A stretch of DNA of 64,000 nucleotides, from positions 4,052-68,051 of the forward strand of contig JBQTJJ010000033.1 in assembly GCA_052387235.1 (NCBI GenBank), given 5' to 3'. Every line of letters begins with the position of its first letter. Within the stretch, counting starts at the first letter, position 1. Shown piece by piece: positions 31,256 through 64,000 of the stretch. Below the pieces are notes generated by a model. The model worked only from the letters and a program-made list of their open reading frames with translations. It was not told the DNA's origin and ran no database searches. Made by a program: the position numbers and the translations under genes. This stretch comes from Actinomycetota bacterium (GTDB lineage: Bacteria; Actinomycetota; Acidimicrobiia; Acidimicrobiales; GCA-2861595).

Positions 31256-32368
31256 GTGGACGCGCGCCGCCGGATCGTGGAGCGGGGGCTGGTGGCGGAT
31301 GCCGTCTCGCTGCTCGCCGACCGGGCCCTGGGGGCGCTGCCCCTCGAGGCCCTGGGGCCCACCAAGGCGCTGCTGAAGCGGTACTTCTCGGTCGCCGGCT
31401 GGGGGCCGGGAGACGACGACGCCCTGGCCGCCGCCGTGGGCCCGGGAGAGGGGTGGTGGCGCGAGCCGCTGGCCGGCGACCTGGCCCTGGTCTTCGGGTG
31501 GGAGGGCGGCCGGTTCCGGCTGGCGGCCGAGGGGACCGGGGAGGCGCCACCGGGACCACGGGCGCCGGCGACCTCGGCCCTGGCGGCCTCGTTCGAGGGG
31601 CCCATCGTGCCCGAGGCCACGCCCAACCCCCGGACCCTGGTGTTCCGCACCGGCGCCATGGCAGAGGGCGAGAGCCGCGAGTTCCGCTCGGGCGAGGAGG
31701 CGGGCGACCCAAGGGTGCGCCGGCTGCTGGACGCCTTCCCGGACCTGTCGACGGTGCTGGTGGCCCGGGACTTCGTGGCCCTCACGCTGCGCCACCCCGA
31801 CCGCTGGGAGGCGCTGCTGGGCCCGGTCCTGGAGGTGGTGACGGAGGAGTTCGCCGGCGCCGGGGAGCCGGTGGCCGGGCCCGACGCCGTCGCGGGCCCG
31901 GATGTGCGGGCCGGCGGCGCCGGCGGCTCGCACGAGGGTCGCGACCGCCAGACCAGGCTGGACCGGGCCTGGGCCGAGCTGCGCCGGCTGCGGCCCGGGC
32001 TGGAGGCCGACCTGGCCGTGCTCCTCGAGGCCGCGTCCGGCCCGGACGCGGCCCGCCGTCAGGTTGCCGCCGGCCTGCTGGGCGAGGCCCGGCCCGAGGC
32101 CGCCCTGGCGGCGTGGACGGCGCTGGTGGGCGACGCCAGCCGGCTGGTGCGCCGGGCGGCCGTCGACGCGGTGGTGGACGCCGGCCGCCCCGAGCTGCGC
32201 CCCCTGCTGGAGCGGGCTCTGGCCGACGGCGACGCCTGGGTCCGCTGGAAGGCGCTGCGGGGCCTGCACGAGCTGGGGCCGGAGCCCAGCCGTCCCGCCA
32301 TCCAGGCCCGCCTCGACGACCCCGACTTCCGGGTCCGCCTGGAGGCCGAGGCCGCCCTCCGCTCCTGA
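31256..32368 (+). CDS. Nfu_N-like scaffold domain plus HEAT-repeat protein (CvfC/'virulence factor' domain-like architecture)
   Basis: The central segment TPNPRTLVFRTG...VLVARDFVALTL...W resembles the Nfu/NifU N-terminal domain. The C-terminus has HEAT-like repeats (VRRAAVDAVV, DAWVRWKALRGL, DFRVRLEAEAAL). Confidence 0.6.
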   Translation: MDARRRIVERGLVADAVSLLADRALGALPLEALGPTKALLKRYFSVAGWGPGDDDALAAAVGPGEGWWREPLAGDLALVFGWEGGRFRLAAEGTGEAPPGPRAPATSALAASFEGPIVPEATPNPRTLVFRTGAMAEGESREFRSGEEAGDPRVRRLLDAFPDLSTVLVARDFVALTLRHPDRWEALLGPVLEVVTEEFAGAGEPVAGPDAVAGPDVRAGGAGGSHEGRDRQTRLDRAWAELRRLRPGLEADLAVLLEAASGPDAARRQVAAGLLGEARPEAALAAWTALVGDASRLVRRAAVDAVVDAGRPELRPLLERALADGDAWVRWKALRGLHELGPEPSRPAIQARLDDPDFRVRLEAEAALRS

Positions 32369-48116: not shown

Positions 48117-48974
48117 TCAGGCCGAGATCGAGGTGGGGAACGGGCGGGGGGTGCCCAGCCGGTCCCGGAAGTTCGAGGCCGAGGCCACGGCGGCGACGTA
48201 GGCAGCCTTGCGCCGGGCCACGCGGGGGCTGTCGCCGGCGTCCTTGACGGACTCGGGGTCGAGCTGGGAGGTCATGCCGTCCTTGAGCAGGGCCATGGCC
48301 TTGGAGCGCATCTGGGAGATCCGGGAGGCGCTGACGCCGAGGTCGTCGGCCAGCTCCTGCATGGACCGCTCCTCGAAGAAGTAGCCCACCACCACCTGGC
48401 GCAGGCGCTCGGGCAGCGCCGAGACGGCGTCGAGCAGGTAGGAACGGCGTTCCCGTTCGAGCAGGACGAGGTCGGGGCTGCGGTCATCGGCCGGCAGCGA
48501 CCACTCGCTCGTGCCGTCGATGACGATGGACTCGTAGTTGAGGACGACGGAGCGGTGGATGTCGTCGGTGAGGGCGTGGACGGCCTGGTCGGCCATGCCC
48601 AGCTTGGCGGCCAGCTCCGGAGTGGTGGGGGTGCGGCCCAGCTCGGCGGTGAGCTCGTCGGTCGCGGCCAGCATGGCGCGGGCCTTGGTGCGCACCGAGC
48701 GGCTGGCCCAGTCGCGGCTGCGCAGCTCGTCGAGCAGGGCGCCGCGGATGCGGGCCGAGGCGTAGTGGTCGAAGCTGATGTCGCGGTCGGGGTCGAACGC
48801 CCGGGCCGCCTGGGCCAGCCCGGCCATGGCGGCCGATACCAGCTCGTCCCTCGGCACGTGTCTGGGGAGGCGGTTGAGGAGGTGGTTGACGGCGTAGTCC
48901 ACCAGGGCAAGGTTGTCCCGCACGAGCGCCGCCTCGAGGTCCCGCCTGCCCTGCTCCACCGCAATCGTTGCCAT
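48117..48974 (-). CDS. FliA/WhiG-family (group 3) RNA polymerase sigma factor
   Basis: 285 aa. GLAQAARAFDP...F..YASARIRGALLDELRSRDWASRSVR (regions 2-3) and LRQVVVGYFFEERSMQELADDLGVSASRISQMRSKA (region 4). ATG at 48972-48974; the track ORF extends to 49814. Confidence 0.85.
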   Translation of the reverse strand: MATIAVEQGRRDLEAALVRDNLALVDYAVNHLLNRLPRHVPRDELVSAAMAGLAQAARAFDPDRDISFDHYASARIRGALLDELRSRDWASRSVRTKARAMLAATDELTAELGRTPTTPELAAKLGMADQAVHALTDDIHRSVVLNYESIVIDGTSEWSLPADDRSPDLVLLERERRSYLLDAVSALPERLRQVVVGYFFEERSMQELADDLGVSASRISQMRSKAMALLKDGMTSQLDPESVKDAGDSPRVARRKAAYVAAVASASNFRDRLGTPRPFPTSISA

Positions 48975-49044
48975 GGAGCAAAAGGTCACCGAAAAGGGGC
49001 ATCCGGCGCATCGGCCGGAGGGCTGAACCTGTCCGCCGCACCCA

Positions 49045-49077
49045 TCCGATCGGGCCATGCCACAAGGCCCGATCGGA
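49045..49077. promoter_or_regulatory. Perfect 12-bp inverted repeat between the sigma-factor gene and the divergent atypical regulator
   Basis: TCCGATCGGGCC-atgccacaa-GGCCCGATCGGA, 71 nt from the sigma ATG and 66 nt from the regulator GTG. Confidence 0.35.
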
Positions 49078-49142
49078 CTAGTCATTCCGGCGCGGGCCGG
49101 TCGTCGGGGGCCGCGCCGGCATGGCGACAGTAGAGTGGCGGC

Positions 49143-49805
49143 GTGGACCAGCACGGCCCGCCGTCCGCGGTCGTGGTCGACGAGTGGCCGCTCGTCCGGG
49201 TGGGTATCGCACAGACGCTGCGGAGCCTCGACATCGACGTGCTGGCCGAGGTCTCCCAGGGCGAGGAGGCGGTGCGGGCGGTCGAGGCCGGCCGGGCCCG
49301 GTACCTCCTGATCGGCACGGCCCGCGACCTGTCGCTGCCGGAGACGGCCCGCCGGGCCCGGGCCCTGCAGGCCGCGCCGAAGATCCTGGTGCTGGTCGAC
49401 CAGATCGGGCGGGACGACGTGGACGCGCTGCGCGCCGTCGGCATCGACGCCCTGCTGCCCCGGTCGGTGAGCCCGTCCGACCTGGCCGACGCCGTGTCCC
49501 GGGTGAGCCGGGGCGAGCGGGTGGTGGCACCTGCCCTGCTGTCCATGCTGGTGGGCTTCCTCGGCCCGTCCGGGAACGGCGAGGAGCCGCCGCTCCCGGC
49601 CGGGCATCCCGAGGCGCTCACCCGCAAGGAGCTGGAGGTCCTGGCCCGGCTCTCCGAGGGACGCACCAACCGGGAGATCGCCGACGCCCTGTACATCACG
49701 CCGGCCACCGTGAAGTCCCATCTGGCGCACATCTACGTGAAACTGGGCGTCACCGGCCGCCAGGAGGCCATGGCGAGGGCCGTGGCCCTCGGACTTCTGG
49801 GCTGA
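49143..49805 (+). CDS. Atypical NarL/LuxR-family response regulator (degenerate receiver; WhiI/BldM-like class)
   Basis: C-terminal LuxR HTH (LTRKELEVLARLSEGRTNREIADALYITPATVKSHLAHIY). In the receiver, the phospho-acceptor position aligns to Gly (YLLIGTARD) and the conserved Lys position to Pro/Arg (ALLPRS). Confidence 0.8.
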   Translation: MDQHGPPSAVVVDEWPLVRVGIAQTLRSLDIDVLAEVSQGEEAVRAVEAGRARYLLIGTARDLSLPETARRARALQAAPKILVLVDQIGRDDVDALRAVGIDALLPRSVSPSDLADAVSRVSRGERVVAPALLSMLVGFLGPSGNGEEPPLPAGHPEALTRKELEVLARLSEGRTNREIADALYITPATVKSHLAHIYVKLGVTGRQEAMARAVALGLLG

Positions 49806-49845
49806 AGCACTCACAGCCTGGCCGTTCGCGCCGATCTGAGACTAC

Positions 49846-50361
49846 GTGGCAGACCGGCTCAGCGACCTCTCGGAGGTGCTCTGGCGGGAGCGTGAGGCCC
49901 TCGAGCTCGTGGTCTTCAAGTTGGAGGAGCAGCGGCTGTTGCTGCGCGAGGGGCGGTGCCGGTGGCTGGGACACGCCAGCCGCGAGGTCGACGTCGTCCT
50001 CGACCAGCTGACCGAGATGGAGCTCAACCGGGCCGTGGCCTCCGCCGCGGCCGCGGCCGAGCTCGGCGTCGCCGACAGCGCCCAGCTGTGCGTGCTGGCC
50101 GCCGCTGCGCCGTCGCCGTGGCCGTCGGTGCTGGCCCGCCACATCGAGGCCCTGCGCCGCCTGGCCGAGGAGATCCTCGTGCTCGCCGACGAGAACCGCC
50201 GGCTGCTGCGGGAGGGCCTGGCCTGCGTCCGGCGCACGATCGGCGCCCGCCCCGGGAGGGCGTCCACCCGGATGCTGGTGGACGCCGCATCCTTCCAGGC
50301 CGCGCTGTCCACCAACGAGCGGGTCCTCCACCCCTCCCTGGTCGACGCCGTCCGGGGTTGA
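49846..50361 (+). CDS. FlgN-like coiled-coil protein (flagellar export chaperone family resemblance)
   Basis: 171 aa. LSEVLWREREALELVVFKLEEQRLLL...RWL..ASREVD.VL resembles actinobacterial FlgN as I remember it. GTG start. Confidence 0.5.
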   Translation: MADRLSDLSEVLWREREALELVVFKLEEQRLLLREGRCRWLGHASREVDVVLDQLTEMELNRAVASAAAAAELGVADSAQLCVLAAAAPSPWPSVLARHIEALRRLAEEILVLADENRRLLREGLACVRRTIGARPGRASTRMLVDAASFQAALSTNERVLHPSLVDAVRG

Positions 50362-50403
50362 GCGCCGTCCGGGGTCGAGCGCCGCTGGTCGTAGGCTGGC
50401 CCC

Positions 50404-50742
50404 ATGGGGTTCACCCGCCGCCCGCAGGCACCTGAGGTCGACACCGCCGAGCTGGCCTCGGCCCTGGACGAGGGCGCGGTCCTGGTCGACGTGCGCATGG
50501 CCGACGAGTACGAGGAGATGCACGTCCCCGGCGCCCGTCTCATCCCCCTCCCCGAGCTGGGCAGCCGCACCGACGAGGTCCCCGGCAGCCAGCGGGTCTA
50601 CGTGATCTGCGCCTCCGGGAGCCGCAGCCTCGCCGCGGCCGAGGCCCTCAACCGGGCCGGCTGGGACACGGTGTCGGTGGCGGGCGGCACCAGGGCGTGG
50701 GCGGCCGAGGGCCGTCCCGTCCGCACCGGCCCCGACGCCTGA
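50404..50742 (+). CDS. Single-domain rhodanese sulfurtransferase
   Basis: 112 aa. VLVDVRMADEYEEMHVPGARLIP, and an active-site loop ICASGSRS. Confidence 0.85.
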   Translation: MGFTRRPQAPEVDTAELASALDEGAVLVDVRMADEYEEMHVPGARLIPLPELGSRTDEVPGSQRVYVICASGSRSLAAAEALNRAGWDTVSVAGGTRAWAAEGRPVRTGPDA

Positions 50743-60989: not shown

Positions 60990-63307
<2,318 letters not shown>

Positions 63308-63309
63308 GC

Positions 63310-63660
63310 CTACTCCTTCCCGGCGCCGGCAGCGGCGCTCAGGGTCTCGTCCAACCAGGCCCGGACCTTTGCCTCGTTGAGGTCGGCTCCGTTGATCCTC
63401 CCCACCTCCTGGCCGTCCCTGAACAGCAGGAACGCCGGCAGCCCCATCACGCGTAGCTCGATGCACAGCCGGCGGGCCTTGGGCGCCTCCAGCTTCACGA
63501 CCCTGAGCTGATCGGCCCGCTCCTCCGCCAGCCCCTCGATGAACGGCATCAGGGCCATGCAGGGCTGGCAGTCGGTGCCCCAGACGTCGACGAGCGACGT
63601 GCCCTCCGCCACCAGGTCCCGGAACGTCTCCTTTGTCGCCTCCGCGATCGCTCCAGCCAT
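63310..63660 (-). CDS. Thioredoxin-like protein with non-canonical CQPC active site
   Basis: 116 aa with a Trx fold (VDVWGTDCQPCMALMP...GLPAFLLFRDG). It lies immediately upstream of grdA, and its last codons carry the grdA SD. Confidence 0.85.
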   Translation of the reverse strand: MAGAIAEATKETFRDLVAEGTSLVDVWGTDCQPCMALMPFIEGLAEERADQLRVVKLEAPKARRLCIELRVMGLPAFLLFRDGQEVGRINGADLNEAKVRAWLDETLSAAAGAGKE

Positions 63661-63661
63661 G

Positions 63662-64000
63662 TCAGCCTCCTCCGTTTCGTTCCAGCAGCACGCTCATGCC
63701 GTCCGAGAGCTGCGACATGCGCCCGAGGAACAGGCTGCCCTTGGCCAGCAGCAGCACCCGGCCGGCGTCGCCCGTGGTGAGGCGGTCGACGGCGTGGGGC
63801 AGGTAGCACAGGGCCGACGCCAGGTGCCCCTGGGTGGGGGCGAACCCGGGCATGCCGTGGGCGGCGGCGAAGGCGGCGATGTCGGCCCGGTCGATCTCGC
63901 CCCTCTGGGCGGCCAGGGCGGCGATGGTCTTGTAGTTGCGGGCCGGCACGTCGCCCGAGCCCTGGGGCTCGGTGATCTCGGGGTTGTGCAGCTCGGTGGC
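63662..64000 (-). CDS. 3' part of a thiolase-fold/SpoVAD-like protein, possibly glycine reductase component C subunit (GrdD-like); 5' end outside window
   Basis: The open frame runs to the window edge. The C-terminus GDAGRVLLLAKGSLFLGRMSQLSDGMSVLLE resembles the SpoVAD/GrdD-type C-terminus as I remember it. It is tightly linked (TGAcATG) to trx-grdA. Confidence 0.4.
   Translation of the reverse strand, partial: ATELHNPEITEPQGSGDVPARNYKTIAALAAQRGEIDRADIAAFAAAHGMPGFAPTQGHLASALCYLPHAVDRLTTGDAGRVLLLAKGSLFLGRMSQLSDGMSVLLERNGGG

Follow-up and report, generated by a model that had tools for sequence, protein, structure and literature searches.

A divergent sigma-28/flgN gene pair with an intervening predicted pseudo-receiver regulator, detached from flagellar structural genes in Acidimicrobiales

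Actinobacterial homologs of the flagellar sigma factor sigma-28 form two clades, WhiG1 and WhiG2 (Denis et al., 2026, preprint, PMC12871210). WhiG2, the clade of the Streptomyces protein, is under the control of RsiG together with cyclic di-GMP (c-di-GMP); WhiG1 sigmas are linked to flagellar clusters, do not bind RsiG and have no known partner, and 38% of their genes are sited outside such clusters (PMC12871210). The control of WhiG1 sigmas, on which RsiG and c-di-GMP are inactive, is openly described in that work as a gap, and neither Acidimicrobiia nor FlgN is mentioned in its text. FlgM is missing from the basal classes of Actinomycetota, which include Acidimicrobiia (Zhu et al., PMC10746217). 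Here, we describe a cassette found in a 64-kb stretch of contig JBQTJJ010000033.1 (hereafter the window), which comes from an Acidimicrobiales metagenome-assembled genome (MAG). It comprises a sigma-28 family sigma factor of 285 amino acids (48117-48974, minus strand) and, divergent from it on the plus strand, a NarL/LuxR-family regulator of 220 residues with a predicted pseudo-receiver domain (49143-49805) and a 171-residue protein of the FlgN flagellar export chaperone family (49846-50361).

In this 2.3-kb unit, the sigma factor is paired with just two candidate partners, FlgN and the regulator, and with a few conserved DNA elements, i.e., two operator-like boxes, a sigma-28 -10-like block and a clean WhiG1 promoter. 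What is new in comparison with known flagellar control units is a stand-alone sigma-flgN cassette with a seemingly non-phosphorylatable regulator between the two genes, providing candidates for the regulator of WhiG1 sigmas. The explanation that we favor, and consider probable though well short of established, is that this Acidimicrobiales cassette was built on a flagellar-clade sigma-28 and flgN that split off from their cluster, and that the NarL/LuxR regulator between them is a lineage-specific insertion acting independently of phosphorylation. Like the WhiG1 sigmas described in PMC12871210, the window sigma has lost the contact residues for RsiG and c-di-GMP, appears to group with sigmas of flagellar clusters, has a predicted CTCA-N16-17-GCCGA promoter on a neighboring target, and has no FlgM or RsiG nearby. 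Unlike them, it lies away from a flagellar cluster, is paired with a pseudo-receiver regulator and stems from Acidimicrobiales MAGs.

The core of the actinobacterial flagellar cluster consists of fliC and the sigma gene in one direction and flgN, flgK and flgL in the other, as found in Curtobacterium, Nocardioidaceae, Demequina and others (L013-L166; L numbers denote the loci compared). The window shares with it the divergent sigma/flgN pair, the type of flgN promoter (outside Curtobacterium), the C-terminal extension of sigma and, in some lineages, an intergenic box; it differs by the absence of fliC, flgK and flgL, by the apparently inserted regulator gene and by duplication of the box. The FliA-FlgM-FlgN system of Salmonella and Escherichia coli likewise combines a sigma-28 with a sigma-28-dependent flgN, a dependence that is predicted for the window, and with an export chaperone that is all-helical, like the predicted model of the window FlgN. 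In the window, however, there is no FlgM, flgN is divergent from sigma instead of lying in an flgMN operon and is not followed by flgK or flgL, and FlgN appears unusually conserved and carries an extra C-terminal helix.

Three further systems resemble the cassette in having a response regulator linked to a sigma factor of this family. In Actinoplanes missouriensis, the orphan response regulator TcrA activates the fliA genes (Mouri, 2018; Hashiguchi, 2020; both as summarized in PMC13083903), which places an orphan regulator above FliA-family sigma genes (fliA1-3). TcrA is not reported in that summary as adjoining a sigma gene, and the link that we propose for the window is read from adjacency and the boxes only. 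Streptomyces WhiG acts on WhiI and BldM, again a sigma-28 family factor with an atypical orphan NarL-type regulator; the window differs in that its sigma belongs to the other clade, its regulator is not a predicted sigma target and has lost the acceptor Asp, and RsiG is missing. In Bacillus subtilis, DegU and SwrA control the fla/che operon that contains sigD. There, too, expression of the flagellar sigma is under a NarL-family regulator; DegU is phosphorylatable and has a cognate kinase, and the operon architecture is unrelated.

The product of the sigma gene matches the Pfam models for sigma-70 regions 2, 3 and 4 above their cut-offs and is devoid of region 1.1. FliA/WhiG models were its top five NCBIfam matches, and FliA and WhiG its top PDB matches, in line with the FliA/WhiG-type sigma factor proposed in the initial annotation of this DNA. 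Identity was 43-50% to sigmas located inside flagellar clusters and 36-37% to Streptomyces venezuelae WhiG and two FliA structures. A neighbor-joining tree, which carries no support values, joined the Acidimicrobiales sigmas, that of the window included, with 12 flagellar-cluster sigmas as their sister group, at a distance from S. venezuelae WhiG and the two FliA sequences. Alignment to the S. venezuelae WhiG structure revealed that the c-di-GMP contact residues K57, G61 and R62 are replaced by D, N and H. Four of the five RsiG contacts also differ, T235, L236, Y239, E240 and L242 corresponding to V, G, F, E and R in the window protein. The contact positions are similarly unconserved in flagellar-cluster sigmas from Curtobacterium, Nocardioidaceae, Demequina and Kineosporiaceae, which have the arginine at 242 in common with the window protein.

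Beyond region 4.2, the window sigma carries a C-terminal extension of about 50 residues with the motif ARRKAAYVAAVA (window 48117-48270). The general form of this motif, ARRxAY(F/V/L)AxVA, is common to WhiG1-type sigmas in flagellar clusters and in the cassette, and is found neither in S. venezuelae WhiG nor in E. coli FliA. The initial annotation had also proposed a search for rsiG. The RsiG motif E(X)3S(X)2R(X)3Q(X)3D had no match in the six frames of the window, and none of the 50 listed Foldseek matches of the FlgN model was an RsiG structure; with no such motif in FlgN, in the regulator or in any other frame of the window, an RsiG-like anti-sigma role was rejected. Because the contact residues are lost, the sequence appears to group with flagellar-cluster sigmas, the C-terminal extension is present and the RsiG motif does not occur in the window, the protein is best classified as a WhiG1-type, flagellar-clade sigma-28 that does not belong to the Streptomyces WhiG/RsiG clade.

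One genome per GTDB species was scanned with a FlgN family profile, which gave six Acidimicrobiales MAGs and 74 other loci, mostly from Curtobacterium and further from Nocardioidaceae, Demequina, Frondihabitans, Kineosporiaceae and Patulibacter. A metagenome scan with the same family added 80 loci. In 129 of the 130 loci with enough flanking DNA, flgN was divergent from a sigma gene. Where both flanks were available, a flgK-like gene followed flgN in 98 loci, 92 of which had fliC after sigma, and 13 loci were the regulator-containing cassette, which has neither flgK nor fliC. Because the divergent arrangement is so nearly universal, the actinobacterial flagellar cluster can be said to have the sigma/flgN pair as its core, and the window contains this core alone. 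It is the divergent pair, and not the whole flagellar cluster, that forms the evolutionarily stable unit. Detached pairs in non-flagellar surroundings also occur in Actinomycetia: one is followed by CsrA in a Propionibacteriales MAG (L023, 8855-11029), and the other, in Nocardioides imazamoxiresistens (L074, 5960-8359), by a convergent gene for a NarL-type response regulator of the typical kind.

The cassette of sigma, regulator and flgN was found in at least 13 distinct Acidimicrobiales loci with several different neighborhoods, and the unit is compact, as described in the initial annotation. In the closest relatives, the stretch from hemE/helicase to ctaG/qcr genes contains sigma, regulator, flgN and usually a rhodanese gene, arranged as in the window; in L167-L170, the same trio occurs in other neighborhoods with regulator homologs that are 57-60% identical. 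A Pfam scan of about 40 open reading frames (ORFs) detected no flagellar, chemotaxis or pilus domains elsewhere in the 64 kb, small ORFs not being exhaustively scanned for FlgM. The ORFs of 12 flagellar-cluster loci, every one of which served as a tblastn query against the window, matched only sigma, flgN and generic domains. These searches support the view taken in the initial annotation that the window contains no flagellar structural genes. The sigma-flgN pair is here detached from such genes and sited among genes for heme synthesis, cytochrome oxidase and the bc1 complex.

The third gene of the trio had been called FlgN-like, and its product indeed matches the FlgN family (PF05130, residues 4-132) with 56.2 bits against a gathering threshold of 30.5; the refuting outcome named in the initial annotation, a lack of FlgN homology in HMM searches, thus did not occur. 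All 56 homologs with precomputed domains carry PF05130. The AlphaFold2 model is all-helical, with a predicted local distance difference test score (pLDDT) of 92. In a Foldseek search with this model, Pseudomonas aeruginosa FlgN (2FUP) was found with a template modeling score of 0.71 (normalized to target length) and a root mean square deviation of 3.5, at an E-value that is not significant, and 5KRW was also listed; nothing was found at E≤0.001, and other helical bundles scored equally well. A sequence-profile search of the PDB with the FlgN family gave no match. Its identity to the FlgNs of flagellated actinobacteria amounts to 39-49%. Since it also shares the N-terminal motif LSxVLWRERExLE..FKLEE with FlgNs of flagellated loci and has the same divergent sigma neighbor, it is regarded as orthologous to the FlgN encoded in front of flgK and flgL in flagellar clusters.

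The median identity among flagellated loci is 48% for FlgN, 47% for sigma and 37% for FlgK, which suggests that FlgN is remarkably conserved for a chaperone. The window FlgN is no more diverged from flagellated FlgNs than these are among themselves, and therefore there appears to be no sign of relaxed or changed selection in Acidimicrobiales. The C-terminal tail (…AASFQAALSTNERVLHPSLVDAVRG) is a conserved, lineage-specific elaboration that retains an aromatic residue and a terminal LVD motif. The aromatic residue is compatible with binding of FlgK/FlgL and the FlhA export gate, and proves nothing. In more distant Acidimicrobiales, flgN is split into an ORF of 134-145 residues and one of 60-73 residues with a 4-nt overlap (L167, 10706-11322; L168, 5715-6310; L169, 10754-11376; L170, 10686-11278), and the end of the small ORF (…AYRAAM..ERVLHPSLVEFLGQ) corresponds to the tail of the fused 171-residue protein in the window.

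Upstream of flgN, we identified a predicted WhiG1-type sigma-28 promoter (49810-49837, plus strand), with CTCA as the -35 element at 49810-49813, a 16-nt spacer and GCCGATCT as the -10 element at 49830-49837. It ends 8 nt before the GTG start, a distance that is also found in L002, and agrees with the published WhiG1 consensus CTCA-N16-17-GCCGAACT (PMC12871210). A promoter of the type TAAA-N15-GCCGATAA, as suggested in the initial annotation, was not what flgN has; its motif is CTCA-N16-GCCGAT instead. The motif occupies the same position in all 17 Acidimicrobiales loci checked and furthermore in L168 and L169, with CTTA as the -35 element in L167. It is also present upstream of flgN in most flagellar loci outside Curtobacterium, making two classes in all. 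In number alone, the motif does not stand out in the window (three matches against two expected), and the evidence for its function lies in positional conservation. The flgN genes of Curtobacterium (L013-L062) and other Microbacteriaceae do not have the CTCA-N16-17-GCCGA motif; in these bacteria, sigma may read a promoter of a variant form, or flgN may be transcribed in a different way.

The neighboring plus-strand genes have promoters of another kind. A candidate -10 element of the regulator gene, TAGAGT (49131-49136, plus strand), lies 6 nt before the GTG start, which predicts a leaderless mRNA, and TAGAGT, TAGAAT or TAGACT was found at the same distance from the regulator start in nine of nine loci. 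The motif CTCA/TAAA-N15-17-GCCGA was not found upstream of the regulator (48975-49142). A single-domain rhodanese gene follows flgN (50404-50742, plus strand; PF00581 in syntenic loci), which is a frequent neighbor of the cassette and whose membership is uncertain. It has the candidate -10 element TAGGCT (50392-50397, plus strand) 6 nt before its ATG, and TAGGCT, TAGGGT or TAGAGT recurs at this distance in nine of the ten loci checked (L002-L012 and L088 among them), the exception being L089, where the element is further from the extrapolated start. These hexamers look like typical actinobacterial housekeeping (sigma-A-type) -10 elements. Leaderless mRNAs are thus predicted for three genes in a row, those for regulator, FlgN and rhodanese, and each gene would have a promoter of its own; within the cassette flgN alone looks sigma-28-dependent, the regulator gene not.

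The grouping of sigma, the divergent position of flgN in 129 of 130 loci and the WhiG1-type promoter of flgN together give strong support to a flagellar ancestry of the cassette. The likeliest reading of its present role is an ordinary but dispersed flagellar regulon, because flagella are common in Acidimicrobiia, the constraint on FlgN seems unchanged and flgN retains a sigma-28 promoter. Flagellar clusters occur in 41-91% of the species of basal classes including Acidimicrobiia, and in several cultured Acidimicrobiia (PMC10746217). For the organism of the window itself, the evidence leans modestly toward it being flagellated. If these genomes hold ordinary flagellar clusters elsewhere, the finding would be an unusual but ordinary split of a flagellar regulon.

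Alternatively, flagella may have been lost, leaving the cassette as a self-contained, re-purposed switch in which FlgN, the regulator or both act as partner or anti-sigma of the sigma factor, which would direct a non-flagellar regulon. FlgN might, for example, bind the conserved C-terminal extension of sigma. The way the cassette moves as a unit among unrelated neighborhoods, never next to a flagellar gene, fits this explanation, and so does the sigma-flgN linkage, which is the most persistent one and outlasts detachment in several lineages. Conservation of FlgN at the level of sigma and above that of its presumed substrate FlgK would be unusual for a chaperone. Chaperones that double as regulators have precedents in Salmonella, where FliT acts against FlhDC and FlgN acts on flgM translation. 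The partner of WhiG1 sigmas is explicitly called unknown (PMC12871210), and FlgM is absent from these classes. Still, we consider the re-purposed switch unlikely, as FlgN, compared with that of flagellated species, has neither changed in rate nor shed chaperone-like features, and one related locus (L171, described below) has sigma and regulator without FlgN. The abundance of flagella in Acidimicrobiia argues in the same direction, and the sigma-28 promoter retained by flgN fits an ordinary late flagellar gene.

A more far-reaching proposal is that FlgN is the missing post-translational regulator of WhiG1 sigmas in FlgM-less Actinomycetota, i.e., a chaperone doubling as anti-sigma factor or partner. 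We give it little credence. Contact would possibly be made via the ARRxAYxAxVA extension and in Acidimicrobiales maybe jointly with the pseudo-receiver regulator. If this were true, the detached cassette would represent the switch stripped to its essentials, perhaps in non-flagellated cells.

Returning to the cassette as a split-off flagellar pair with an inserted regulator, we examined the regulator. It matches the GerE helix-turn-helix domain (PF00196) with 62.7 bits and the Response_reg model with 21.7 bits, below the cut-off of 30.2, and aligns along its full length to NarL and VraR. In the receiver pocket, the phospho-acceptor Asp is replaced by Gly or a gap, the Thr/Ser by Val or Leu and the Lys by Arg, both in the window protein and in 119 of 119 homologs; in the acidic pocket, the first Asp is retained and the second residue is Glu. 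The missing acceptor Asp and Lys of this NarL-type protein had already been noticed in the initial annotation. The pattern is that expected of a dedicated pseudo-receiver protein of the atypical NarL/FixJ type. Its family comprises 528 matches, and the named ones all come from Acidimicrobiales or Actinomycetota MAGs. Descent of the regulator from a component of the ancestral flagellar cluster was considered and rejected: the LuxR-type genes in L063 and L129 have typical receivers and about 27% identity, and the NarL-type gene adjoining flgN in L074 likewise has a typical receiver.

The region between sigma and regulator contains the palindrome TCCGATCGGGCC-N9-GGCCCGATCGGA (49045-49077, right arm 49066-49077), which, with the three genes, lies where it had initially been annotated. 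Its existence is clear; the significance given to its perfect form does not hold. DNA of this length and composition is expected to contain about one perfect 12-bp inverted repeat with a loop of up to 20 nt; the window has two, a number reached in 27% of simulations. Across eight orthologous intergenic regions, complementarity is confined to the inner CGGGCC/GGCCCG and the outer 2 bp, and pairing over these regions amounts to 67.6% of cells, the same as in shuffles, with no covariation. Rfam searches of the intergenic regions gave only sub-threshold noise inside flgN. The palindrome is therefore no RNA structure, nor is it conserved as a perfect repeat; its perfect form is at chance level and specific to this genome, while the boxes inside it are beyond chance. 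The other perfect 12-bp inverted repeat of the window, GGCCGCGTCCGG (32029-32053), has a 1-nt loop and is located inside an ORF with HEAT and Nfu domains (31256-32368). Two other roles were tried for this region and discarded: for a terminator-like hairpin in the sigma leader, comparison of 14 loci gave no consensus structure, and the right arm of the palindrome read as a sigma-28 -10 element (CCCGATCG) has no CTCA at N16-17, with CGG rather than CGA in most relatives.

Each arm of the palindrome is a copy of a 13-bp box, YCCGWWCGGRCYA, the core of which (CCGATCGG) is itself palindromic. Box 1, TCCGATCGGGCCA (49045-49057, plus strand), forms the left arm and is a candidate operator upstream of the sigma promoter. 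Box 2, CCCGATCGGACTA, overlaps the right arm and continues into GACTAGTC (49076-49083), so that the element as a whole spans 49068-49083 on the plus strand. The two copies (49045-49057 and 49068-49080) are 23 bp apart and are the only ones in the 64 kb. GACTAGTC is a nearly invariant palindrome whose core CTAGT is invariant in nine of nine aligned relatives despite 75% G+C. In the whole set of loci retrieved, the sigma-side intergenic DNA (44 kb) has 26 copies of the box, compared with one in 2.16 Mb elsewhere, an enrichment of more than 1000-fold. Several flagellated Nocardioidaceae-like loci have one copy in the sigma-flgN interval, so that two actinobacterial classes are represented; the flagellar-cluster loci L063 and L135 have the element GGCCCGAACGGACTAG in this interval, and L053 and L068 have variants of it. 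The spacing from the boxes to the sigma-proximal block is constant, and that to the -10 element of the regulator varies. They may thus be read as an operator for the sigma gene, for which the adjoining regulator is the obvious candidate binder, and the split-off-cassette explanation, with the same probability as a whole, treats the palindrome as the accidental perfect-complement form of two boxes in one genome.

That the palindrome is instead a chance feature without function, in an intergenic region with ordinary promoters only, would agree with the expected number of such repeats, with the restriction of the perfect form to this genome, with the missing covariation and with the absence of an Rfam match or a conserved RNA fold. 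We nevertheless find it improbable, since the half-elements are copies of a box that is so strongly concentrated next to sigma genes and conserved in two classes, and the CTAGT core beside them is invariant in a G+C-rich background.

The sigma-proximal conserved block (49008-49026, minus strand) may serve the sigma gene as promoter or operator and consists of GCCGATGC and an imperfect inverted repeat; it showed no conserved RNA structure. GCCGATGC is an octamer resembling a sigma-28 -10 element (49015 to 49008) and overlaps the 16-bp imperfect inverted repeat TCAGCC-N4-GGCCGA (49011-49026). CGCATCGGCCG is invariant in nine close loci, and the wider core G[GC]CGATG[CT]G was found in 14 of 14 Acidimicrobiales loci. 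A sigma-28 promoter for the sigma gene itself is a doubtful candidate: GCCGATGC is kept, but the -35 site varies (GGAC, GAAC, ACAA). A conserved TCA lies only 8 nt upstream of GCCGATGC.

From these elements, a working scheme of the cassette can be proposed. The regulator gene would be transcribed constitutively or with autoregulation from a sigma-A-type promoter, giving a leaderless mRNA. The regulator, or another dedicated dimeric factor, would bind the two YCCGWWCGGRCYA boxes and thereby set the expression of sigma. The sigma factor would then transcribe flgN, again leaderless, from CTCA-N16-GCCGATCT; here the promoter match and its conservation are observed, and transcription is what they suggest. 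Presumably, sigma also transcribes a late flagellar regulon elsewhere in the genome, and FlgN, judging from its family, would serve as export chaperone for hook-associated proteins.

Several observations weigh against this scheme and the evolutionary history behind it. The score of the best NCBIfam model, TIGR02479 (FliA_WhiG), is 179.9 bits, about 10 bits short of the cut-off of 189.6, a near miss that is typical of a divergent subclade. The neighbor-joining tree holds only one WhiG2 and two FliA sequences, which is a thin sampling. No flagellar, chemotaxis or motor gene accompanies the cassette in the 64 kb, nor within 10 kb of it in about 12 related loci. Concerning the intergenic elements, only adjacency ties the regulator to the boxes, which are likewise seen in flagellated loci where no regulator of this kind is close by, and the -10-like GCCGATGC of the sigma gene has no CTCA at N16-17, leaving its sigma-28 dependence unproven. 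Finally, L171 (GCA_035536185.1, DATLOM010000055.1, 8979-11047) has sigma, regulator and rhodanese in the same gene order without flgN, the regulator stop being 10 nt from the rhodanese start; because of this locus, the sigma-regulator pair can be said to persist without the FlgN chaperone. The position of WhiG1 genes within or near a flagellar cluster is also not seen here, flgN being the sole adjoining flagellar gene.

The least probable explanation, and one already largely refuted, is a Streptomyces-like developmental circuit in which a WhiG-type sigma activates the gene of an adjoining WhiI-like regulator as in sporulation control: WhiI and the window regulator are both orphan NarL-family proteins with degenerate phosphorylation pockets and response regulators are frequent predicted WhiG targets in the literature, but the sigma has no WhiG2 signature residues, the window is free of an RsiG motif, TAGAGT serves as candidate -10 element of the regulator gene, in front of which no CTCA/TAAA-N15-17-GCCGA motif is found, the sole sigma-28 promoter of the cassette precedes flgN, and the typical NarL-type regulators of flagellar loci are only about 27% identical to the window regulator. 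The sigma-A-type -10 element and the lack of a sigma-28 promoter thus make the regulator an unlikely analogue of WhiI. The initial annotation had considered both a flagellar remnant and a developmental circuit of the WhiG/WhiI class; the flagellar origin is upheld by the clade of sigma, the 129 of 130 pairings and the flgN promoter, and the developmental analogy is not supported, given the RsiG and c-di-GMP contact residues, the missing RsiG motif and the TAGAGT element.

The surroundings of the cassette are those of a housekeeping region. The window has a G+C content of about 75%, and the close relatives of its FlgN protein all come from Acidimicrobiales MAGs, the window protein itself being recorded at NCBI as a protein of an Actinomycetota bacterium MAG. 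The Pfam scan assigned only housekeeping functions to the roughly 40 further ORFs. According to Pfam and synteny with annotated contigs, the genes present include pst/phoU, ppx, ppk, fabD/H/acpP/F, Ku/LigD and a histidine kinase. On the 5' side of the trio are ferrochelatase, hemE, a UvrD-like helicase and RidA, and after it come the rhodanese, CtaG, CtaE, QcrCAB, CtaD/C, a Ser/Thr kinase and ThiC. In addition, the window encodes GrdA, the glycine reductase selenoprotein A (62834-63160, minus strand), which matches PF04723 with 117 bits over profile positions 47-147 only, its N-terminal part probably lying beyond an in-frame TGA (selenocysteine) codon. Its neighbors are a thioredoxin gene and a DUF5940 gene (63310-63660 and 63662-63949, both minus strand).

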